Origin: a virus
Lineage: Duplodnaviria; Caudoviricetes
DNA: 64,000 nucleotides
Direction: 5' to 3' (one strand)
Virus record (IMG/VR): IMGVR_UViG_3300021255_001748
Coordinates: 1-64,000 of that record
How positions within the stretch are numbered: the first letter of the stretch is position 1; each line of letters begins with the position of its first letter. The position numbers were made by a program, and so were the translations under genes. Below the pieces are notes generated by a model, which worked only from the letters and a program-made list of their open reading frames with translations, was not told where the DNA came from and made no database searches. Below, one piece after another: positions 3,995 through 58,729 of the stretch.

Positions 3995-4405
3995 ATGAAG
4001 TACGAAGCTAAGTATTATGTGAATGAGGAAAAGCGGACAGTTGTTTGCACTATTGAGTGTAGTGAGTGGGATGCATTTGATTATATTGAAGGCAGTGATA
4101 TTGTAATCTCTGTTCCCGGCCAGAGCAAGGCTCTATATAAGCATGGCAGGATGCCGTCTAAGTTTGTCGGTATTGCTAAGTGCGCACCCGGCGATAAGTT
4201 TGATGAACATATTGGCCGCCTACTAGCATTCAACCGTGCAAAGGGTAAGTATGATCACGCTTTTGAGGCACGAGTTGTGTATCTGGTGAATCAGTGGGAT
4301 AGACTGCGACAGGAGGTGCTAGAGCGGCTACTACATTATAATAAGAAGGCCGCATATCATCAGAGTCGGCGCAGTAAGGAAATTGAAGAGTATCTAAATA
4401 AGTAA
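3995..4405 (+). CDS. conserved phage hypothetical protein
   Basis: GIAKCAPGDKFDEHIGRLLAFNRA motif typical of phage small proteins. Confidence 0.65.
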   Translation: MKYEAKYYVNEEKRTVVCTIECSEWDAFDYIEGSDIVISVPGQSKALYKHGRMPSKFVGIAKCAPGDKFDEHIGRLLAFNRAKGKYDHAFEARVVYLVNQWDRLRQEVLERLLHYNKKAAYHQSRRSKEIEEYLNK

Positions 4406-16891: not shown

Positions 16892-17227
16892 ATGTTTTCT
16901 TTACAATTAGCAGATGGTACGTTAATTGACGGATTAAAACGCATAAATCCTTCAACATTTGAACTTATAAGTAACGATAACATATTATATCACCAGCTTA
17001 ATGATTTTAATCTCTCGTTCGCTATTCTCCTTGATGAAGACGGCGTAATGAGTGATGTTTATTTGGACTATACACTGCAAAATTTTATATAGCAAAGTGG
17101 TATAGTTTATTTTAGATTAACTAGTATTAACGAGTTAAAAAAACAAATAAAACATAAGAAAGAAAAAGAAATAGAAAAGTGGCAAAAATACAATGAAAAA
17201 ATGAAGAAAAGGAGGGAGCGCAAATGA
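16892..17227 (+). CDS. hypothetical protein (code 15)
   Basis: GAGGTG RBS; ATGA overlap with the next gene after TAG readthrough. Confidence 0.6.
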
Positions 17228-19590
17228 GTTTGAAAATATGGCTGCCCCTCTGTGATAACAATAATATGCTAAAAAATTTAGGGCTTTAGCCGCTAACATG
17301 GATAAATACTGGATTAAATATTGTAGAATCTGGGAAAATTGGTGGATATTCTCATTATGCTCAAACTGCAGGTGATGGCTTGTCAGCAGGACCAATTACT
17401 ATTCCCGTAAATAGCTAGATTTCTATTTGTGCGTGGGTTAATTTTTTAGATACAACTAGAACTACTGGTTATATCTGTGGATTTGGTAATCCAACAGCAA
17501 CAGCTGATTTTATGATAGCACGACATCAGTATACTAGTATTGGCGTTTATTTAGGTGACTCACAGCAATTAAGTGCAAATGCTAGTGAGTATAATTATAA
17601 TATGCAAGATTGGATGCATGTTGCCGCCACTTATGATGGTACTAAATTAAAATTATATGTTAATGGCCAATTTTTAAAAGAAAAAGAAATTACTACTACA
17701 GTACAATCCACCAATTATTTTTTAATTGGCTCTCGTAGTATTGCCACTGCAGGCAATTTTCATAACAGTACTTATGCTAATGCAGAAATAAATGATGTGC
17801 GTTATTATGATCACTGTCTCTCCGCTGCAGAAGTTAAAGAGATTGCATAGGGATTAATACTTCATTATAAATTAGATAATGGTGGAATGAATAATTTATT
17901 AAAAAATAGTAATAATTTTACTGCTGCAGATTTCTCATGCACACGTTCAACTGTACCATCTAATGGTATATTACAGGTAACACCAACTACTTTAGCCGCA
18001 TATGCTAAATATATTACTGATTTAGATTATGATTTTTATAATAATAAAACCTATACAGTATCATATGATATGCAAGAAATAGAATCAAGTGATACTACTT
18101 ATACTTCTGCTCCAATGCGAGTATACTGTGGTTACACTATCGCATCTCGTAAAACGGCAGCATTTAGTTCAAATTATGACAGATATACATATAAAACAAT
18201 CTCAACTATTGGCTCAGGTTGGCATCACTATTCGGTTAGTTTTTCTGTCCCTGATGAATTAAATATTGGAAAAACTGAAGCATTAACATCAGGTTCTAAT
18301 TTGTGTGTTGAATTTTATAGAGTTGCTTAGCACATACCAGTTCAGATAAAAAATATAAAATTAGAAATAGGCAATAAAGACACTGGATATACACTAAATC
18401 CAGCCGATTTAAATATTGATCCTACAATAATTGAAGATAGTAGCGGCTATAATCATAATGGAATTTCGTCATCGCTTTAGTTGTATTCTTCGGATACACC
18501 ACGATATACTACTTCTAATTATATAACAGATGCTGCAACTGCATATTTATCAGCTGATAATTTAGCATTTAATATAAGAAATATTACTACAAATATTTGG
18601 TTTAAAAGCACCAACACTTCACCAACAGGAGGACACCATTGTCCACTTACATTAAGTACGAATGATGGGAATAATTTAACTTTATTTGTTCATAATAGCG
18701 GAAAGTATCGTTCAGGAATAAATGTAAATAATACATCTTATCAAGTAAATTGTGAAAATACAAATTGTCTTGATGGGAATTGGCATATGTTAACTCTAAC
18801 ATATGATGGCGCCACTTTAAAACGTTATTTTGATGGAACATTAGTTTCTACAACTGTTGTCAGTTATACTACAGATCTTTATTTGACTAATTTAGTTATA
18901 GGTAAAAGAGGCATATATATAAGTGAAAATATTTATATAAGTGACTTGCGTATTTACGCCACTCCATTACTTGACGATGATATAAAATAGTTGTATAATA
19001 TAAGTATGGGAATAGATAAAAATGGTAATACTCATACTGGTGAATATATAGAAAATCAAATAAATATATTCAATAATAAAAATGTTTCATAGTATTGTAA
19101 AACAAATTACTCAAATGAACCAATATTACGTAATGGAATATTAAGTATTAGAATTTATCCTGCAGATTATTATCACAATATTAGTAATTCAGAATCAGCT
19201 ATTTTAAAAAATGAATTTTTACCTAATACTCAATATTATTTTGATATATGGGCAGATGGTGATTCCAGTACTAGTACAAATAATACTGGTTTTAGAATTA
19301 ATTATACCGATGGAACGGATACAGAAATGCATTTTATTGGAAACGGTAATAATGGCTGGTAGCATAAAGTTCTAGTATCCGATGAAAATAAAAGCATTTT
19401 AAATTGTTCAGAATTTTATGGCACTAATACGCCAGTATATTATGGATTAAACAGTTTTATCGGCCCTATTAGTAATTTACAAATTCAAAAAAATACTCAA
19501 ATAAATACCACTACAATATCTGAAAATTATCAACAAACTTCATTCCATCACGGTGGAGCATTAAATACTAAACAAATAATAGAGCGTTAA
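17224..19590 (+). CDS. LamG/concanavalin A-like lectin domain protein (788 aa, code 15)
   Basis: WMHVAATYDGTKLKLYVNG..INDVRYYDHCLSAAEVKEIA(Q)GLILHYKLD; second WHMLTLTYDG..ISDLRIYATPL; three ORF fragments share one frame. Confidence 0.8.
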
Positions 19591-28548: not shown

Positions 28549-29452
28549 TCAAAGCCTCAACCGACCGGCTTAGAATAGGTGGGTCGTGGATAAGCGCCGA
28601 ATCGTAATTGGTGCTAGGGCGAAAAGGTAGAAGGCACTGTCCGGGTTCGACTCCCGGCGTTGGAGGGTCGTGGTGTCAAAAACCCTGATGCACTTAGAGT
28701 CTAGCCTCGCTCAAAGGCGGCCACCGGAGAGCGCATACTGAGCCCATAACAGATAAGAGAGTGGGCAGTAGTCACGCTACTATAAAAAGGTGTAAGTTCC
28801 ATCTATGGAAAAGTATCGTAGGTGTCGGCAAGCAGGGCCAAACTGCTGCAACTCTGGTAGTCAGGCAGAGTATTAGAGCAATGACAGGACTTTATGTGTG
28901 AAACTAAGCTCTTCGGCATCCTCACCAAATTGAGGGGAGAAATCCAAAAAATGGGATGGAACACATACGCTGAGGAAAACTGCGTAACAAAAAGAGAAAG
29001 TAAGACGCTCAATAATGGTCTACAAGGTGCCCAAATGCTGTTATATGCTGAAGAAGGATTTGAGTCGGATCATAAGTAGCTAATATGATTAATTTCAGCA
29101 TATGAGAAGAATGGGTTAAATGGAATTTGAAGAACAGCCAATGCGCAAACTGTATGGCTTTGCATGTGCCAGATTGCTCGGCGCGTTAGAAAAGAAGAGC
29201 AAAGTAAGCACACGGGATGGAAGGAAACGAGCCACGTCCTTACCGGCCCTGAGTAGTTGCGACGAAATGGGCGGGAGAAGCAGAAGTAGTAACTGCACCC
29301 ACAAATAGGTGAAAAACGGGAAGGCAGGGAAATGGATTGGTAGTCCCGGTCAGCTCTTAGGGTAGCTCCCTAAACTGAAAAGGAAGCGGCATCATCAACC
29401 GCTCCCGTCACACAGTGTAGCCTACTCAGTTGCGGCTGAGTTATCAAACCGC
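28549..29452 (+). ncRNA. candidate large structured ncRNA (GOLLD-like in size and context)
   Basis: about 900 nt, GC-richer than coding DNA, between two tRNAs, no credible ORF, many short helices. Confidence 0.45.
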
Positions 29453-31780: not shown

Positions 31781-32722
31781 ATGGGAGTTTATACAGCGAC
31801 GGATCTAAGGCAGATGTAGTCTCTGCCATTAGAGGCAAAAATTGTAAAAAGTCAAGAACGAATCAAAGAATATTACGATTACTTCAATGGAGAAGTATAT
31901 GTATCTTTTTCAGGCGGAAAGGATAGCACAGTTCTTCTACACTTAGTAAGAGAATTGTATCCAGATGTAAGAGCAATGTTCGTTGATACTGGACTTGAAT
32001 ATCCGGAAGTCAAAGAATTTGTAAAGTCACAAGAAAATGTTACTATTGTAAGACCATCAAGAACTTACAAACAAGTCATTGAGCGCTTTGGTTATCCAAT
32101 GATTAGTAAGATGACTGCTAACTGTATTGCGACCGCACGTCGTGATCCAAACTCTACTCGCGCCAAGTACTTAACAGGAGAAATCCCAACAAAAGCATTT
32201 GGATATGGTAATGGTAGATGGTGGCCTATGGTAACAGATGCTCCCTTTAAAACTAGCGGCTATTGCTGCGAAGTAATGAAGAAACAACCTGCTCATAAGT
32301 TCAATAAAGAAACTGGGCTAGTGCCTTTTATCGCTACGTTGGCTGATGAATCAGTTAATCGGCGGCTAAATTGGTATAAAGAAGGTTGTAATAGTTTTAA
32401 GGGCAAAGATTCACAAAGTAAGCCTTTATCATTTTGGACTGATTAGGACATATATCATTATCTAAAAGATAACAATATTCCATATTGTCCTTTATATGGT
32501 GATATTGTAGAGAATGAAAAAGGCGAACTAGTTACTACTGGTATTGAACGTACTGGTTGTATTTTCTGTGGATTTGGCGCCCATCTTGAAAAAGAACCTA
32601 ATCGTTTTCAACAGTTAAAGAAAACTCATCCAAAACTATGGGACTATTGTATGCGTCCTATTGAAGAAAATGGATTAGGAATGCGCGAAGTTTGTGAATT
32701 TATGAAAATTCCCATTGAGTGA
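31781..32722 (+). CDS. PAPS reductase family protein (313 aa, code 15)
   Basis: M(Q)SLPLEAK..VSFSGGKDSTVL..DTGLEYPE..CCEVMKK..RTGCIFCGFG. Confidence 0.85.
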
Positions 32723-32737
32723 GAAATCACTCTTTAT

Positions 32738-32812
32738 CGGGCATTAACTCAGTAGGTCTAGAGTGGCATCCTTATAAGTTGCTGGTCCTTGGTTCGAGTC
32801 CAAGATGCCCGA
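32738..32812 (+). tRNA. tRNA-Ile(TAT)
   Basis: cloverleaf; loop CTTATAA. Confidence 0.85.
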
Positions 32813-32821
32813 CTAATCAAA

Positions 32822-32945
32822 TATTTAGTGGCGGAATATGTAGACGCTTACGGGAGCAATAAGATTACTGCGTCAAAGCGAAATTACTTGTTCGCAGTGC
32901 TTGCACTAATGTAATTATGTTTGGTGAAAATCCAGACCTAAATAT
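32822..32945 (+). ncRNA. tRNA-like RNA (copy 1) with non-canonical central region
   Basis: acceptor TATTTAG/CTAAATA; Leu-type D-arm; 6-bp T-stem; no standard anticodon arm. Confidence 0.6.
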
Positions 32946-32974
32946 TTGACTTTTTCCCAAAATTCTGCTATAAT
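32946..32974 (+). promoter_or_regulatory. sigmaA-type promoter driving the 567-nt RNA
   Basis: TTGACT-N17-TATAAT. Confidence 0.75.
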
Positions 32975-33001
32975 ATATATGTAAACAAGGAAAGGAGATA
33001 T

Positions 33002-33568
33002 TAGGTTAGTAAATTTTGAACCAAGTGAAGATGTGCTAACCACACAGCTTGGGCTATCCGTATAGTAGCTGTCACTGCCCGAAGGATACTTTTGGTTAAA
33101 CAGCCGCCGAAACAGTAATGTTAGGTGATAAAGGAGAAACTCCAAATACTAAGGATAGGCGCTTGGGTGTTCGCAATCAAAAGCACTTTTCCTCTCGGCT
33201 ACATAATAGAAAGCTTGTTGAATAGACGAGCCGAATCCAGATAAGGCATTGGGGTGGTAGCCAGTGCAAACTCTGGAAATACCATAAGTAGCTATCGGCG
33301 TTGATGAAAGCCGGAAACGGCATATAAGAGAGGTTTATGGTGGGAGTAGGCCAAAGCGACGTACAAGTAATATTGAATAAGAATTATTGAATATTGCTGA
33401 ATGGTTTGGCTGAAACTTGAAGGTAGTCAATCCTTCCTACACTAGGCGAAAGCGGATCGAAGAAGCTATGGGGTCGCTACCTATGGCTCAGCCTTTGGTT
33501 CTGTAGTGGCTGAATATGATTGAAGAATGACTTGAGTACGGCGAAGGTCGCAATAGTTTACTAACCTA
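33002..33568 (+). ncRNA. large structured ncRNA, ROOL-like candidate
   Basis: 12-bp perfect terminal helix TAGGTTAGTAAA/TTTACTAACCTA; own promoter; no ORF; length and tRNA context fit ROOL. Confidence 0.6.
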
Positions 33569-33598
33569 ATATCTCCTATTTCTTTTTTGGAGGATAAT

Positions 33599-34531: not shown

Positions 34532-34885
34532 GGGGTAGTTTTGGTTTCGACAGGTTATGAATGGTATTGAAATCACGGGTAGGCGGAGCACCTTACGCAG
34601 CAAAACAATTGAACTGACAATGATTATTTTTATAGCGAACTAAAGGCTGCTTAATTGCAGTTTCGCACCTAAACAACAAACCTGCTAATCGGTAAATGTT
34701 TGCGGTTCAAAGATAGATTAGTAGATTGGCTTCAGGCCAGCTGATTTTCTCTATTCACAGTCCAACGAATAGAGTGGTGGAAGGATCATTCCCAGTTTGT
34801 CAGAACTTAAAACTGACTATCGTGTAAGTAATTTTCAATATTGATTGTAGCTTGGACAGGGGTTCAACTCCCCTCTACTCCACCA
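34532..34885 (+). ncRNA. ssrA: tmRNA
   Basis: 5' GGGGTAG..GGTTTCGACAGG; 3' GGACAGGGGTTCAACTCCCCTCTACTCCACCA; tag frame DNDYFYSELKAA-TAA. Confidence 0.92.
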
Positions 34886-37087: not shown

Positions 37088-37195
37088 TAGTTTGGAAATC
37101 AGCGAGTTCTCCCACGAATAAAGTCAGCGCTGTAAAAGTGAGTAACGGTCGGTAAAATAAAAGTTGTGAGGTCGTTGATAGGCAACAAAATATAT

Positions 37196-37284
37196 AGCCC
37201 CTTAGTTGAATGGCACAACAGCGCTCTCTAAAAGCGTAAGCGTGGCTGACACCGCGGGTCTCCGTTCGAATCGGAGAGGGGCTG
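37196..37284 (+). tRNA. amber suppressor tRNA (anticodon CTA)
   Basis: AGCCCCT/AGGGGCT acceptor; GCGCT-CTCTAAA-AGCGT; about 22-nt variable arm; canonical T-arm. Confidence 0.85.
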
Positions 37285-37288
37285 TTAT

Positions 37289-37422
37289 CTGGGTGTAGCG
37301 CAGTTTGGTAGCGCATCAGATTTGAAAATCTAGCATAATGGTAATGCTTTATATCAGAGTTCAACTCTCTGGATTTTCACGGGATCTGAGGGTCGTGGGT
37401 TCAAATCCCACCACCCAGACCA
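37289..37422 (+). tRNA. tRNA-Pro(TGG) interrupted by a 57-nt tRNA-like insert
   Basis: canonical Pro arms and CCA; removing 37324-37380 restores TCAGA-TTTGGGA-TCTGA. Confidence 0.85.
37324..37380 (+). ncRNA. anticodon-less mini-tRNA nested in tRNA-Pro
   Basis: acceptor GAAAATC/GATTTTC; D-arm GCAT-AATGGTA-ATGC; T-arm CAGAG-TTCAACT-CTCTG. Confidence 0.8.
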
Positions 37423-38971: not shown

Positions 38972-39380
38972 GCGGGTATGGCGGAATAGGCAGACGCCAC
39001 AGACTTTTGTAAAACAAAGAGCACTAGAATAGGAAACTTTCTGAGTGAATGCTGGCTAATTCGGTGAAAGTCCTGATAGGATAACGCCGAGCTAAATTAA
39101 ATATGGCGTGTCTAGTATAAGATAGCAGATAATAATTTATCTCTGAAAACATATAAACTGCAGATAGGTATATGCAAGTAAGTAATACAAAAATAGAGGG
39201 GCAGTACCTCGGCACGTCTCATATTTATAAATGTGTAGAGACTATATACCAGCCACCTAAGTCGTAAGATAAGGTGAAGACATAGCCCAGACTACAACGC
39301 AGTAATGCGGCTATGGTAACATAGAGTAGTAAGAAAATCTGTTGTCTTCGGACGTGCCGGTTCAAGTCCGGCTACCCGCA
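38972..39380 (+). tRNA. tRNA-Leu(TAA) split by a group I intron
   Basis: exon 1 38972-39006 and exon 2 39334-39380 join to ACAGA-CTTAAAA-TCTGT. Confidence 0.88.
39007..39333 (+). ncRNA. group I self-splicing intron (327 nt, no internal ORF)
   Basis: P1 with U.G pair at the 5' splice site; AATTCGGTGAAA; R GTAGAGACTA; S GAAGACATAGCC; terminal G. Confidence 0.88.
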
Positions 39381-39653: not shown

Positions 39654-40178
39654 TTAGGGTTGTGTTTAATGAGCACGGCCTTCGGGAAGAATTTCCCGTG
39701 TGACCAGCAAGTCTAAAAACTGTCATGGGCTGGGTGGGATGCCCTAGGTCCATCGTATTATAAATACTGAGTTTCTCTTGACTCTGGGAAGTTCCCTAAA
39801 CAAGATTATAATCCTTGCCCACCTGAAAGCACGGGTTCAAGGCAGAAAACATGCGGTCCAGCTGGACGCGACGATGGTTAGTTTGGGGTTTTACACCACT
39901 AACAAGGGGCTCGTCTAATGACCTCTTCAAGAACGAAGAAGTAAGCGCTTTGAGCCCTTATTAAAAATCAATAGGAGCTATGAAGTACTGCTATTTGGCT
40001 TAATATTCGGCAGTTAGGCAACGCAGACGTGTGATCCTATAAACAAATCCTATTGATACTATAATGAGTAGATGTTTATCTACCTAGGACTATTGAGGAC
40101 GAGAGCGGTGGGAATGTTTGAGCGGCAAAGCCGAAGGTAAATAGTCTAAGTACAGGCCACCTGAGCGTGGTCTGAGTA
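39654..40178 (+). ncRNA. candidate structured ncRNA of about 525 nt
   Basis: ORF-free and GC-richer, between two tRNAs; helices such as CCATCGT/ACGATGG. Confidence 0.4.
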
Positions 40179-41284: not shown

Positions 41285-41770
41285 ATGCCTACTTTGTACA
41301 TTATGTGCGGTATTCCTGGCTCCGGAAAAACTTATTTTGCTCGTAATTTTCTTCATGCTGATGTTACTGTATCTCGTGATAATATTCGTTTCATGATGCT
41401 TGATGATGAAGATAATTATTTTGACCATGAGCCAGAAGTATTTAAAGAATTTGTAAAAACCTTAGTACATCACTTGCATTACTTTGATACAGTAGTAGCA
41501 GACGCCACTCATCTTAATGCGTGGTCTCGTAAGAAGCTTACGAATGCTATTGATAAGTATATTACCGATTACCGCATTGTTTATGTAGTGTGTGCTCCTT
41601 CTCTTCAAACGTGCCTCTATCGTAATAATAAGCGCACTGGCCGCGCCCGTGTACCAGAAAAAATTGTGAAAGAAATGTATGATAAATTTTGTCCGCCAGT
41701 AAATGACGCATACAAACTGGAAGACCCCCGAGCTGTTGGCGTTTGGTGGATTAACGGCGAACCAAAATGA
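41285..41770 (+). CDS. polynucleotide kinase-like P-loop protein (AAA_33)
   Basis: MCGIPGSGKT; VSRDNIR; DATHL. Confidence 0.8.
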   Translation: MPTLYIMCGIPGSGKTYFARNFLHADVTVSRDNIRFMMLDDEDNYFDHEPEVFKEFVKTLVHHLHYFDTVVADATHLNAWSRKKLTNAIDKYITDYRIVYVVCAPSLQTCLYRNNKRTGRARVPEKIVKEMYDKFCPPVNDAYKLEDPRAVGVWWINGEPK

Positions 41771-42363
41771 ATATTTTCTTCACTAGTGATACTCATTTCT
41801 TTCATAACCAATCATTCATTTACGAACCTCGCGGTTTTACTTCCGCAGACGAAATGAATGAAGCGCTAGTAGAACGATGGAATGAAGTAGTCAAAGAAAA
41901 TGACATTGTTTATCATCTGGGCGATGTATTGATGGGAAATTATGATGTTAATATTCTCAAACGACTTAATGGGACTATCCATTTAATTCAAGGCAATCAC
42001 GACACAGATAACAAACTTAGCGACATCTACGCAACTGGAAAGGCGACTAATATTACACAAACCAGCGAACTTATAAAGTTCGGCAAACTAAGACTTTTTT
42101 GTTGCCACTATCCAGTTCTTACTGCTAATTTTGATGATAAGCATTTTTCTCAACATATCATTTCATTACATGGACACACTCATCAAACCTCCGATTGGTT
42201 ATTTTCAGATAATCCCTTTATTTATCATGTTGGTTTAGATTCACACAATTGTTATCCTGTAAATTTAGATACAATTATTGCAGATATTCGTAACCGTTGG
42301 AACCAATTAGGCCAATTACCGATTATGTTAAATAATGACCATCATAAAAATTTCACCTCCTAA
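41767..42363 (+). CDS. calcineurin-like metallophosphoesterase
   Basis: SDTHFFH, HLGD, GNHD, CHYP, HGHTH. Confidence 0.85.
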   Translation: MNIFFTSDTHFFHNQSFIYEPRGFTSADEMNEALVERWNEVVKENDIVYHLGDVLMGNYDVNILKRLNGTIHLIQGNHDTDNKLSDIYATGKATNITQTSELIKFGKLRLFCCHYPVLTANFDDKHFSQHIISLHGHTHQTSDWLFSDNPFIYHVGLDSHNCYPVNLDTIIADIRNRWNQLGQLPIMLNNDHHKNFTS

Positions 42364-44040: not shown

Positions 44041-45282
44041 ATGTTAAATGCTAAACAAGAACGTGAACTTGCTTATGTTGTAATTATTGATGGTATTGAG
44101 CCTATTCCCGGTTATGATCGCGTTGAAACTGCAATCGTTGGCGGCTGGCATGTAATTGTTCAGAAGGGTCAGTTTAATGTAGGCGATCCGGCTATCTACT
44201 TTGAAATTGATTCCCGTGTGCCTTCTGATAAAGAATGCTTTGCTTTCCTTGAGAAGCGGCATTACAAAATTAAAACTTTGAAGATGTGTAAGACTATTTC
44301 ACAAGGTTTGCTTATGCACGCTTCCGATTTTGGTTGGGAAACTTGTGAATGGACCGATACTAATACTGGTGAAGGTGATGTTGGTATCGCCGATGAAACT
44401 GGAGAAATTCATTGGAGTAAGCGAGAATCTCGTTTCCTTACCAAGAAACTTGGTGTAACTTATGCCGACGATGAAGACAACCAGCGTAAGGCTCCTACTG
44501 TAGATAAGTATAAGAAAATGGCCGCCCGTCATCCCGAAATCTTCAAGAAATCTTGGGCTAAGTGGATGATGAAACATAATTTTGGCAGAAAAGTGATGTT
44601 CTTCTTCTTTGGTAAAAAGAAGGATAAGAAAAACGGCTGGCCAGTTTGGGTAAAAAAGACTGATGAAGAACGAGTGCAAAATATGCCTTGGATTCTAAAT
44701 GATGATGGTGACTGGATTGCCACCGAGAAGATTGATGGAACTAGCACTACTTTCTCTATGAAGCGCGGCAAATTTGGGCACAAATCTTTCTATGTTTGTT
44801 CCCGCAATGTATGCTTCGGAGAAGAAAGCAAAGAATGCTATTATGATACCAATGTATATTGGGAAATGGCTAAGCAATATGACATGTTCAAAGTGCTATC
44901 TAATTTGATGGCGGCTTATCCTAACGAAGAATGGATTACCATTCAAGGTGAAACTTTTGGTGATGGCATTCAGCGGCGAGATTATTCTCTCTGTGGTGAG
45001 CATGATTTTCTAGCATTCAATCTAATTTTCTCTTCTCGCGGTCGTGTAGGCACTCTTGAAATGATTGATATTCTAGACCCATATGGAATTGAATGCGTAC
45101 CTGTACTTGATCGTAAAATGAAAATTAATCAATTTGAAAATGTAGACGATATTCTTGCTTATGCAGAAGGTAAATCTTGTTTGGATAATCTGCCTCGCGA
45201 AGGTATTGTATTCCGTTCTATTGATGGTTCCAAGTCTTTTAAAGCTGTAAGTAATAGTTTTCTTCTAAAGTATCATGCTTAA
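44041..45282 (+). CDS. RNA ligase, Rnl2/Rnl5 (DRB0094-like) family
   Basis: N-terminal IEPIPGYDRVE..YFEIDS; motif I EKIDGTS; QGETFG; EGIVFR; FKAVSNSFLLK. Confidence 0.85.
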   Translation: MLNAKQERELAYVVIIDGIEPIPGYDRVETAIVGGWHVIVQKGQFNVGDPAIYFEIDSRVPSDKECFAFLEKRHYKIKTLKMCKTISQGLLMHASDFGWETCEWTDTNTGEGDVGIADETGEIHWSKRESRFLTKKLGVTYADDEDNQRKAPTVDKYKKMAARHPEIFKKSWAKWMMKHNFGRKVMFFFFGKKKDKKNGWPVWVKKTDEERVQNMPWILNDDGDWIATEKIDGTSTTFSMKRGKFGHKSFYVCSRNVCFGEESKECYYDTNVYWEMAKQYDMFKVLSNLMAAYPNEEWITIQGETFGDGIQRRDYSLCGEHDFLAFNLIFSSRGRVGTLEMIDILDPYGIECVPVLDRKMKINQFENVDDILAYAEGKSCLDNLPREGIVFRSIDGSKSFKAVSNSFLLKYHA

Positions 45283-45500: not shown

Positions 45501-46136
45501 ATGTTACCAAAGATTCATCTAACAATTGAACGCTGGCGAAAAAATAAAGAGTATGGTGTATATGTATCAACTTGTGGGCGGGTTAAATTGATTAAAAATA
45601 AGGAATTACTTAACCCGCGCATTAATGAACGAGGCTATTGCACTGTCTTCACAGACAAAGGCGCTGTAATGGTGCATAGACTCGTCGCATATACATGGCT
45701 TGGCGGTAAACGCAATGCTATGTATAATGTTGACCATATTAATAGTAATAAGCGTGATAATTCAATTAAAAATCTACGTTGGGTTACTATTGAAGTAAAT
45801 AATCAGTACGCGCAGTATACACAGACTAACATTGTGCCAGCGGCTACTGAAGTAGTAGAAGAAACGCCTATTGAAAAAATTGAAGATGAATTTACAATTC
45901 TTTATTCAGAAGAAGCAAGTATTAATGACAAGATAAAGGCATTTGAACAGTTGTATAAAGATAAGCGTCTTTATTTGAAATATAATGGACGAGCAATTAT
46001 AGAATATTTACAGCTGTTTGATATTAAATTTCCTGGCAATAAGCCAAGAAAAAATGTTTTTCTAGAAAATGTTATTAATGCTTGCATCAATAGGCAAGAA
46101 TATGGTGGTTATAAATGGGAATTAATTAAGAAATGA
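45501..46136 (+). CDS. HNH endonuclease
   Basis: VHRLVAYTW..VDHINSNKRDNSIKNLRWVT. Confidence 0.8.
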   Translation: MLPKIHLTIERWRKNKEYGVYVSTCGRVKLIKNKELLNPRINERGYCTVFTDKGAVMVHRLVAYTWLGGKRNAMYNVDHINSNKRDNSIKNLRWVTIEVNNQYAQYTQTNIVPAATEVVEETPIEKIEDEFTILYSEEASINDKIKAFEQLYKDKRLYLKYNGRAIIEYLQLFDIKFPGNKPRKNVFLENVINACINRQEYGGYKWELIKK

Positions 46137-56144: not shown

Positions 56145-57422
56145 ATGCTTTATAATATCAATGATAAGCTTCCTTTTAAGCGACTAATCGTTGCTGCATT
56201 TCAGCAAGTCATCGCTTGCTTTGTGGCCACCGTTCTTATCCCCTCAATTTGCGGCGTTCCTATTGCTCCGGCTATGGTAGGCGCAGCAATTGGTACTCTT
56301 ATTTACCAGCTATGTACTCGCGGCCAAAGCCCTATGTTTATCAGCTCTTCAGGTGGATTTGTCGCCGCAGTAATTGGCGCTCTAACCCTTGGAACTGCTC
56401 CTAACTTTACAGCCGTTCTAATTGGCGGTATTATTGTATGCCTTATTTATTGTATTGTCGGCCTAGTAATTAATAAGTGTGGAACAGCTTGGATTAACAA
56501 GCTTCTGCCGCCATATGTTATCGGTCCGGTCGTTATGGTAATTGGTCTAAACCTAGCTACCTTCTTACCAACCTACTTCCAAGTAAATGGTGAATATAGT
56601 CTAATTGGATTTGGACTTGGTATGCTAACTCTAGCCATCACTGCGCTAATTTCTCACTATGGAAAGGGATTTGTAAAGAATTTACCATTCCTATTCTCAA
56701 TTTTTATTGTCTATGGATTATCTGTAATTCTTACACTTTGCGGCGTTCCAATTGTTAATTTTGAGCCTTTCCATAATCTCCAGATTTTCCAGATGCCAGA
56801 CTTCGCGTTCTTCCATCTTGACTTTGCTAACTTTGATTGGGGTCTAATGCCACAGATTCTACTACTATTTGCTCCACTATCTCTTGTATGTCTATGTGAG
56901 CATATTTCAGACCATAAGGCTTTAAGCGCAGTTATTGGCACAGACCTAACCCAAAATCCCGGCGTAGGCCATACTCTAATTGGCGATGGTATTGCTACAG
57001 CTTTTGGTACCCTAATTGGCTCTATTCCTAACACTTCTTATGGCGAAAGTGTAGGCACAACAGGTTTCAGTAAGATTTGCTCTAAGTATGTAATTACACT
57101 AGCGGCAATTATTATGGGCGTCGCAGCTTTCTTTGGCCCACTACAGGCTCTACTTATATCACTACCTTCCGCAATCTTTGGCGGCTGTGCGGCCATTCTC
57201 TATGGCTACATCACTCTTTCTGGTGTAAGAACCATTAAGGATAATAATCTTGACCTTAACGATAATAAGGTCGTAACTATTATTGCCTCAATTCTAACTA
57301 TTGGTGTCTCTGGTGTTGTATGCAATTTTGGTGTTATCAGTATCGGTACTACCGCTCTTGCAATGTTCGTAGGTATTATTTTAAATCTAATTCTAAAGAA
57401 CAAAAAGGAGATTAATCTATGA
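56145..57422 (+). CDS. NCS2 uracil/xanthine permease (UraA/PyrP-like)
   Basis: many hydrophobic helices; ISSSGGFV; IGPVVMVIGL; EHISDH; GDGIAT; PNTSYGES. Confidence 0.9.
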   Translation: MLYNINDKLPFKRLIVAAFQQVIACFVATVLIPSICGVPIAPAMVGAAIGTLIYQLCTRGQSPMFISSSGGFVAAVIGALTLGTAPNFTAVLIGGIIVCLIYCIVGLVINKCGTAWINKLLPPYVIGPVVMVIGLNLATFLPTYFQVNGEYSLIGFGLGMLTLAITALISHYGKGFVKNLPFLFSIFIVYGLSVILTLCGVPIVNFEPFHNLQIFQMPDFAFFHLDFANFDWGLMPQILLLFAPLSLVCLCEHISDHKALSAVIGTDLTQNPGVGHTLIGDGIATAFGTLIGSIPNTSYGESVGTTGFSKICSKYVITLAAIIMGVAAFFGPLQALLISLPSAIFGGCAAILYGYITLSGVRTIKDNNLDLNDNKVVTIIASILTIGVSGVVCNFGVISIGTTALAMFVGIILNLILKNKKEINL

Positions 57423-58729
57423 GATTTTTAGATAAGCATTTTCATATCACTGAACGTGGTTCTACATTTGGCCGCGAGGTTATTGGCGGCCTCGTGACTT
57501 TTATGGCTATGGCCTATATTATCTTTGTTAATCCATCCATTCTAGGTGTAACCGGAATGGATTATACTGCTCTAACTCTAGCCACTTGTATTAGCGCGGC
57601 AGTAGGTACATTATTAACAGCCTTTATGGCCAATGTACCATTTGCGCAGGCTCCTGGCCTAGGTATTAATGCTCTATTCACTTATACCCTTTGTATGAAG
57701 ATTGGCTATACGTGGCAGCAGTGTCTTGCTATTACATTTATTAGCGGCTGCGTATTTCTTGCAATTACACTCTCACCACTCCGTAATAAAATTATTGAAG
57801 CAATTCCAGCCCAACTAAAGCGTGCTATTAGTGTAGGTATCGGCCTCTTTATTGCTCTAATTGGTCTCATTAATGCTGGTATTGTTACCGCAAATAATAA
57901 TCTACTTGACCTTGGCTCAATCACATCCGGAGCGCCTTTACTTGCTCTAATTGGCCTAGCAATTACAGCTATTCTACTTGTATTTAAGGTTCGTGGTGCA
58001 ATTTTATATTCAATTATTGCCACTACTCTAATTGGTATTCCTCTTGGAGTAACTAATACAGCTATATCTTTCAATTTTGAAAATCTCTCACTTGCTCCAA
58101 CATTCTTCCAGCTTTCATTTACTGGACTAACCGCCCTCGGTATTTTCCCGCTAATTACATCTATTCTAACTCTATGCATGTGCGACTGCTTTGATACAGT
58201 AGGAACTCTTACTGGATGCGCGGCCGGTTGCGATATGCTTGATGAAAATGGCAATATGAAGAGCAAGGATATGTCTCGCGCTCTTACTGCTGATGCTCTT
58301 GCTACTGTTGGCGGATCATTACTAGGCACAAGCACTGTAACCACCTTTGTAGAGAGTTCTACTGGCGTTGCCGCTGGCGCTCGCACTGGTCTTGCTTCTG
58401 TGATAACTGGACTACTATTTGCGCTAGCTTGCCTATTAGCGCCAATTGCCGGTATTATTCCATCCGCGGCAACAGCTCCGGCGCTAATCATTGTTGGTAT
58501 CTTTATGATGAAGAATGTCAAGTATATTGATTGGAGTGATATGGAAATTGCTATTCCAGCTTTCCTAACAATCGCAATGATGCCATTCTCCTATTCAATT
58601 AGTGATGGTATTGGATTTGGACTAATTTCTTATGTTCTATTAAAGGCTATTCGCGGCAAGTTCAAAGAAATTCCAATTCTAATGTATTTCTTGGCGGCAT
58701 TGTTCGTAGTAATGTATATTGTGGCATAA
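57419..58729 (+). CDS. NCS2 AzgA-type guanine/hypoxanthine permease
   Basis: GGLVTFMAMAYIIFVNP; APGLGINA; FDTVGT; ESSTGVAAGARTG; MPFSYSI. Confidence 0.9.
   Translation: MRFLDKHFHITERGSTFGREVIGGLVTFMAMAYIIFVNPSILGVTGMDYTALTLATCISAAVGTLLTAFMANVPFAQAPGLGINALFTYTLCMKIGYTWQQCLAITFISGCVFLAITLSPLRNKIIEAIPAQLKRAISVGIGLFIALIGLINAGIVTANNNLLDLGSITSGAPLLALIGLAITAILLVFKVRGAILYSIIATTLIGIPLGVTNTAISFNFENLSLAPTFFQLSFTGLTALGIFPLITSILTLCMCDCFDTVGTLTGCAAGCDMLDENGNMKSKDMSRALTADALATVGGSLLGTSTVTTFVESSTGVAAGARTGLASVITGLLFALACLLAPIAGIIPSAATAPALIIVGIFMMKNVKYIDWSDMEIAIPAFLTIAMMPFSYSISDGIGFGLISYVLLKAIRGKFKEIPILMYFLAALFVVMYIVA

Follow-up and report, generated by a model that had tools for sequence, protein, structure and literature searches.

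ROOL RNAs constitute a family of large structured RNAs with a mean length of 581 nt, which are encoded near tRNA genes both in prophages and in other genomic regions (PMC5737381) and are also found in bacterial chromosomes and megaplasmids devoid of RNA islands such as the one described below (PMC12990946). They are among the very few natural RNAs known to form a closed cage without protein. The env-120 ROOL forms an RNA-only octamer of D4 symmetry that measures ∼280 Å across (PDB ID: 9MDS) (PMC12286853). The E. faecalis ROOL is also an octamer (PDB ID: 9J3T), whereas the L. salivarius ROOL is a hexamer (PDB ID: 9J6Y), the sole difference between the published hexamer and the octamers being a short apical stem (PMC12990946). 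The cages rely on kissing loops and A-minor contacts, and their disordered variable linker lies inside (PMC12286853, PMC12990946). No function is known for ROOL in the literature (PMC5737381, PMC12286853).

A described RNA close to ROOL in its general character is GOLLD (RF02032), likewise a large ornate RNA of phages and prophages, found beside tRNA islands and of no known function, whose RNA-only cage encloses a disordered linker (PMC12286853). GOLLD differs from ROOL in its unrelated sequence and secondary structure, in its larger size (often >800 nt) and in being a 14-mer.

Here we compare with these systems a locus found in a 64,000-nt stretch of viral DNA (hereafter, the window; positions 1–64,000 of the IMG/VR record IMGVR_UViG_3300021255_001748). 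A preliminary description of this DNA had proposed a ROOL-like RNA at the locus on the grounds of size and context, and its outline of the family (∼580 nt, phage location near tRNAs, RNA-only cages, no known function) agrees with the published accounts (PMC5737381, PMC12286853).

Identification of the ROOL RNA gene

The Rfam model of ROOL (RF03087) matched the window at 32997–33570 on the plus strand with a score of 340.7 bits (gathering score 99.1; E-value 7e-78). All 574 positions of the model (1–574) were aligned without truncation at an average posterior of 0.89, and every consensus stem, from P1 to the last hairpin, was recovered. At E-values up to 1, ROOL was the sole Rfam family matching the locus. 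GOLLD gave no match at the locus (E up to 1) or over the entire RNA island surrounding it (E up to 0.5), and OLE (RF01071) gave none in the window, the locus at E up to 1 included. The full-length ROOL match, together with the silence of GOLLD and OLE in the very cmscan comparison that the preliminary description had proposed as a check, therefore confirms its ROOL assignment. Size and context by themselves could not have told ROOL from GOLLD, so that the locus might have belonged to another or a new class of large RNA (GOLLD, OLE or an unclassified one) that is ROOL-like in these two respects only. We found no support for this, and since ROOL alone was recovered at the locus when E-values up to 1 were allowed and the scan of the island brought up neither GOLLD nor OLE, its probability is negligible. 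When the locus was used as a nucleotide query against 50,697 GenBank phage records, no match was obtained.

We put at about 0.9 the probability that region 32993–33577 (plus strand) is a functional ROOL RNA gene (RF03087) located in the island of tRNA and tmRNA genes that a large TAG-recoded phage carries. The features of the locus are as follows.

32738–32813, plus strand: tRNA-Ile(UAU), upstream neighbour of ROOL
32946–32974, plus strand: sigma-70-type promoter (−35 hexamer 32946–32951; 17-nt spacer; TG 32966–32967; −10 hexamer 32969–32974)
32993–33013, plus strand: 5' arm of the closing helix P1, perfect 21-bp inverted repeat
32997–33570, plus strand: ROOL RNA core, match to Rfam RF03087
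33038–33042, plus strand: L2 loop, putative bridge B1 (L2 with L13'), 5-nt complement to 33402–33406
33255–33259, plus strand: L8 loop, bridge B4, perfect 5-bp complement to 33280–33284
33280–33284, plus strand: J8/6, partner of L8 in bridge B4, complement to L8
33354–33400, plus strand: variable AU-rich linker (GC content 0.28), falling in a long loop that is unstructured in the Rfam model
33402–33406, plus strand: 3' flank of the linker, partner of L2 in putative bridge B1, complement to L2
33474–33478, plus strand: L18 loop, same sequence as in the Rfam consensus; site of the symmetric inter-shell kissing bridge B6
33557–33577, plus strand: 3' arm of P1, perfect 21-bp inverted repeat
33579–33588, plus strand: T-run, one base 3' of P1
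33599–34057, plus strand: 152-aa open reading frame (ORF), N-terminus signal-peptide-like; ribosome-binding site 33589–33593

The locus is an ordinary further example of a catalogued and structurally solved RNA family, not a new kind of RNA. With the ROOL family (Weinberg et al. 2017, PMC5737381) it shares all consensus helices, the closure by P1, the length, the phage location at the side of tRNA genes, the L18 loop of the consensus and both sets of complements (L8–J8/6 and L2–linker flank); its variable linker, too, occupies the equivalent site. The RNA measures 574 nt in its core and 585 nt from arm to arm, compared to the family mean of 581 nt (PMC5737381), and its genomic setting is that of the family, i.e., an IMG/VR virus record with tRNA-Ile 180 nt upstream of ROOL. 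None of the differences is categorical: P1 overruns the Rfam model by ∼4–7 nt at each end, as it does in most other ROOLs examined; the apical P7 stem (∼7 bp) is longer than in the consensus, as it also is in one distant relative (L096); the L8/J8/6 pair is a compensatory variant of the consensus; and the phage carrying the gene is TAG-recoded, with an RNA island of unusual size. This copy, whose transcription unit is well bounded by its strong promoter, 21-bp closing helix and T-run, offers a tidy natural test system for an RNA of this cage-forming family.

Closing helix and coding content

The arms of P1 (32993–33013 with 33557–33577) form a perfect 21-bp inverted repeat and lie 543 nt apart, whereas the longest inverted repeats in shuffled versions of the same 800 nt (n = 30) were 6–10 bp. 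The preliminary description had rightly noticed a perfect terminal helix, but had given it 12 bp; with 21 bp, the RNA extends over 585 nt from arm to arm rather than the 567 nt first reported. Helices of 21–28 bp with unrelated sequences close 8 of the 11 ROOLs, and a long P1 is therefore a trait of the family and not a quirk of this copy. In the minimum free energy fold (−211 kcal/mol; z = −7.6 relative to shuffled sequences), the closing helix continues into the purine-rich leader and the T-run.

Long terminal helices also bracket the 16S and 23S rRNAs, where they serve as processing stems and are cut by RNase III. The resemblance consists in a long perfect terminal duplex around a large structured RNA among tRNA genes; the difference is that P1 belongs to the mature RNA in the solved ROOL cages.

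The stretch had initially been described as ORF-free, GC-richer and hairpin-rich, and on all three counts the description holds: the longest stop-free run inside is 68 codons with genetic code table 11 and 114 codons with TAG as sense, the GC content of the element is 0.432 as against 0.373 in the window, and the fold is strongly structured, as the free energy given above indicates. Since TAG is read as sense elsewhere in this phage, and a run of 114 codons opens in the region when it is so read, one may ask whether the stretch encodes a protein masked by the recoding. ORFs of at least 120 aa overlapping the ROOL region are absent both under table 11 and with TAG read as Gln, the substitutions relative to G003, a close relative with a complete genome, fall in base-paired partners with no codon pattern, and the score of the covariance model is decisive; a hidden protein is accordingly among the least credible explanations of the locus, with hardly any probability left to it.

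Comparison with other ROOLs and selection on structure

Motif scans of viral contigs followed by an nhmmer filter and confirmation with Rfam yielded ten further ROOLs. The comparators were those of a complete 179.6-kb phage (G003), a G003-like fragment (G001), a 402-kb phage with two copies (G002) and the loci L066, L150, L136, L096, L141, L135 and L137; all of them adjoin tRNA genes. A looser scan of the viral contigs with the 5' motif gave >119 loci, all of which were chance matches according to nhmmer, except for L066 and L096. In the 402-kb phage, the two full ROOL copies lie ∼200 kb apart (L126, 1501–2114; L127, 1501–2092), each with a tRNA-Tyr gene downstream.

Among the informative relatives are G003, whose ROOL carries telling compensatory changes, L096, which has RNA-repair genes next to ROOL and few tRNAs in the stretch of the locus covered, and G002 with its two ROOLs. 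The window ROOL is 93% identical to that of G003, and 97.5% identical outside the linker. Mapped on the predicted fold, 9 of 9 changed pairs outside the linker are canonical (three double compensatory changes and six wobble-compatible single ones) and none is broken; of the five changed pairs within the linker (33355–33405), one is canonical and four are broken. Relative to G003, there is in addition an indel of 11 nt in the linker, a region whose counterpart in the solved cages is disordered and faces the inside (PMC12286853, PMC12990946). Mapped on the predicted pairs, the changes follow the pattern expected of a functional structured RNA with an unconstrained linker, and the ROOL described here evolves under selection for base pairing.

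Phage genomes of this group are mosaic and their segments are often replaced, which might allow a decaying, non-functional ROOL relic to hitchhike in the tRNA island. Such a relic is very improbable, given that the match to the model is full-length and untruncated, all pairs that have changed outside the linker show either compensation or a change that wobble pairing tolerates, the complements of the inter-subunit bridges are intact, and the promoter is strong and conserved. A recent exchange of a promoter and ROOL cassette between the window phage and G003, considered in view of flanks that are only 64–72% identical, was rejected because identity is mosaic genome-wide, with other segments reaching 95–96%.

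Predicted cage contacts

Covariation of the cage contacts was read from MAFFT blocks and from the alignment provided by Rfam. The L8–J8/6 interaction corresponds to bridge B4 (PMC12286853), which is intermolecular according to Kretsch et al. In the window the pair reads UGGUA with UACCA, compared to UGGCA with UGCCA in the Rfam consensus, and it covaries across the 11 ROOLs, for which at least four complementary variants were found, UGGA/UCCA, GGAG/CUCC and UGAG/CUCA also among them. The complement between L2 and the 3' flank of the linker occurs in three covarying variants across the 11 ROOLs and, from the text of the structural reports (PMC12286853, PMC12990946), we infer that it represents the published bridge B1. 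The central GC of L18 is common to 8 of the 11 ROOLs, three of which carry a 4-nt palindrome there.

With these contacts intact, the RNA would be expected to assemble in the manner of its solved relatives. In the proposed assembly, ROOL RNA would associate without protein into a closed homo-oligomeric cage, with the AU-rich linker facing the interior. Stoichiometry is not predictable from sequence, but an octamer, as in the env-120 and E. faecalis ROOLs, appears most likely because the apical P7 stem, far from being ultrashort as in the hexamer, exceeds that of the consensus in length.

Promoter and transcription unit

The consensus promoter that had been placed at 32946–32974 is borne out: its arrangement, TTGACT-17-TATAAT, agrees with the consensus in 11 of 12 positions and has a TG preceding the −10 hexamer (extended −10). 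Transcription is predicted to start near 32981–32983. When one mismatch at most was allowed, the promoter pattern occurred at 10 sites in the window (1.2 expected by chance), nine of them on the plus strand. Eight copies, that of ROOL and seven near-identical ones, can be aligned over ∼50 nt, including the bases that follow the −10 hexamer; the family is characterized by an invariant −35 hexamer, a −10 hexamer and an AT-repeat after it. Sites of this promoter family are located at 2485, 9589, 26733, 27869, 32946, 34077, 36858, 42382 and 58757, among others. Copies are found ahead of the tRNA clusters at ∼27.9 kb and ∼34.1 kb, which makes co-regulation of ROOL with the phage tRNAs probable; a single temporal class, to which ROOL and the tRNA operons would belong, is probably marked by the near-identical promoters. 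In G003 and G001, the two promoter hexamers are unchanged, and P1 and the T-run have likewise been conserved. In L066, L136 and L096, promoters agreeing with the consensus in at least 10 of 12 positions are located 17–30 nt upstream of P1.

At the other end of the unit, a terminator scan revealed no canonical intrinsic terminator with a short hairpin. The T-run, a feature read from the sequence, is the probable 3' end, or an attenuator, of the ROOL transcript, while it should be kept in mind that a helix closing over 543 nt is no proven terminator. A T-rich tail follows P1 in ∼4 of 10 ROOL lineages, including L136 and L096; in lineages without such a tail a tRNA gene is often found within ∼100 nt downstream, and co-transcription with tRNAs may there be the alternative to ending at P1 and a T-run. 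According to the scheme that we propose, host RNA polymerase would start ∼12 nt 5' of P1 from a strong promoter of the tRNA-operon class, P1 together with the T-run would end most transcripts while the remainder would be read into the small secreted-protein gene, and the long blunt P1 would shield both ends of the RNA.

The 152-aa ORF downstream of ROOL

There is no separate promoter for the 152-aa ORF in the 22 nt between the RNA and the ORF, and its expression must therefore depend on read-through. The encoded protein matched no Pfam, PHROG or NCBIfam family. The ORF was found only in close relatives, with a protein identity of 53%, and is absent beside distant ROOLs. As a candidate for a conserved ROOL partner it was rejected, being missing at all distant ROOL loci and without a family match; more generally, no recurrent ROOL-side protein from this window was found outside its own phage group.

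The lack of a promoter and the strong ribosome-binding site located right after the T-run raise the question of whether ROOL acts mainly in cis, as a giant 5' leader or attenuator of the 152-aa secreted-protein gene in which P1 and the T-run set the level of read-through. G003 and G001 share the layout, and L096 has a ribosome-binding site and an ATG directly 3' of P1. The ORF is nevertheless absent at all distant ROOLs, several of which have a tRNA within ∼100 nt instead; the RNA is 93% identical to that of G003, whereas the ORF is only 64% identical at the DNA level and 53% at the protein level; and ROOL is known as a free, abundant, cage-forming RNA (PMC12286853). We consider a leader function improbable, and the ORF is probably a read-through cargo that is not part of the RNA.

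The RNA island and TAG recoding

The IMG/VR virus record that contains the window has a length of 77 kb and is estimated by CheckV to be 44% complete; the phage genome would be ∼175 kb. The best protein matches are only ∼32% identical, to phages from the gut and to Staphylococcus and Listeria phages, and this level of identity of one protein is the sole pointer, no stronger than a hint, to a Bacillota host. The RNA island extends over 14 kb (27.2–41.0 kb) and comprises 22 tRNA genes identified by ARAGORN, one further interrupted tRNA gene, a tmRNA gene and a group I intron. The neighbours of ROOL that are relevant to its possible role, in addition to tRNA-Ile(UAU), are the following.

37195–37285: tRNA with a CUA anticodon (amber suppressor), 91 nt, within the island
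41285–41770: AAA_33 P-loop kinase, directly after the RNA island
41767–42363: calcineurin-like metallophosphoesterase, directly after the RNA island
44041–45282: RNA ligase with an OB domain, after the RNA island

Immediately upstream of ROOL, the order tRNA-Asn, tRNA-Ile(UAU), ROOL is kept in G003 and G001. The segment between tRNA-Ile and the promoter (32814–32945) is not significantly structured (z = −1.2) and does not match the 'drum' RNA. In G001, the tRNA-Asn and tRNA-Ile genes that precede ROOL are separated by a 'drum' RNA (L002, 6116–6209; 53.9 bits); the corresponding position in the window is occupied by a PAPS-reductase-like gene (31781–32722).

Several further RNAs were observed in the island. 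The tmRNA (34532–34885; 92.7 bits), with the predicted tag peptide GAPYAAKQLN, is located between tRNA-Arg and tRNA-Tyr. A 131-nt tRNA match at 37289–37419 corresponds to a tRNA with a large insert, and the group I intron match at 38997–39312 is borderline (50.3 bits; cut-off 50). A 'cow-rumen-3' RNA motif at 39657–39754 gave a significant match, although one below the threshold (74 bits; cut-off 86.7; E-value 3e-15), and hints both at a rumen origin and at a further small structured RNA within the island. The ORF-poor segment between tRNA-Met and tRNA-Glu (28549–29452) gave no Rfam match, not even to GOLLD, when E-values up to 0.5 were allowed.

With TAG as a sense codon, broken ORFs between positions 4400 and 60600 of the window are joined into long, abutting genes, one of which (17224–19590) contains eight in-frame TAG codons; the phage, as its reading frames indicate, reads TAG as sense. 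Suppressor tRNAs are found near ROOL in the window and in G002, and a link between ROOL and TAG recoding was therefore considered. The suppressor tRNA of the window has no match in G003, where the segment 36905–37524 is replaced, and ROOL is known from non-recoded hosts; for these two reasons no such link is claimed. G002 possesses two adjacent tRNA(CUA) genes as well as a short partial match to OLE, covering model positions 437–594 only, with 53.4 bits against a cut-off of 50, which may be spurious (coordinates in L003 for these genes and the OLE match: 4043–4192 and 2050–2137).

RNA-repair genes and possible function

In Pnkp and RNA-ligase systems, kinase, phosphoesterase and ligase activities heal and seal cut tRNAs. 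Genes for a kinase, a phosphoesterase and an RNA ligase follow the RNA island in the window. L096 is a more distant relative, with 64% identity in ROOL; there, ROOL is located within ∼3–4 kb of the kinase and phosphoesterase genes, and the stretch of the locus covered contains a single tRNA, most of the tRNA array being absent there.

Because the neighbours of ROOL include 23 tRNAs, a tmRNA, a suppressor tRNA, a kinase, a phosphoesterase and an RNA ligase, the neighbourhood is suggestive of a role in translation support or RNA protection; that the cage could, for instance, house or shield some macromolecule involved in translation is a guess. The occurrence of the healing-and-sealing genes near ROOL in a TAG-recoded phage likewise suggests, on the basis of the neighbourhood, a testable role in protecting or handling translation RNAs. 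A more elaborate proposal combines these elements: in this phage group, ROOL would work in a tRNA-supply and RNA-repair module composed of the tRNA array, tmRNA, amber suppressor, kinase, phosphoesterase and RNA ligase, with the cage protecting or storing translation RNAs against host defences that cut tRNAs, and would at the same time be ended by a fold-completion terminator, in which the 21-bp P1, closing over 543 nt directly before the T-run, would release the polymerase. Taken as a whole, this combination is speculative and rather unlikely.

Two further features lie outside the island. An HNH/NUMOD4 endonuclease gene (45501–46136) is located after the RNA ligase gene, and two adjacent genes of the xanthine/uracil permease family (56145–58729; 206 and 126 bits) form an unusual auxiliary pair for a phage.
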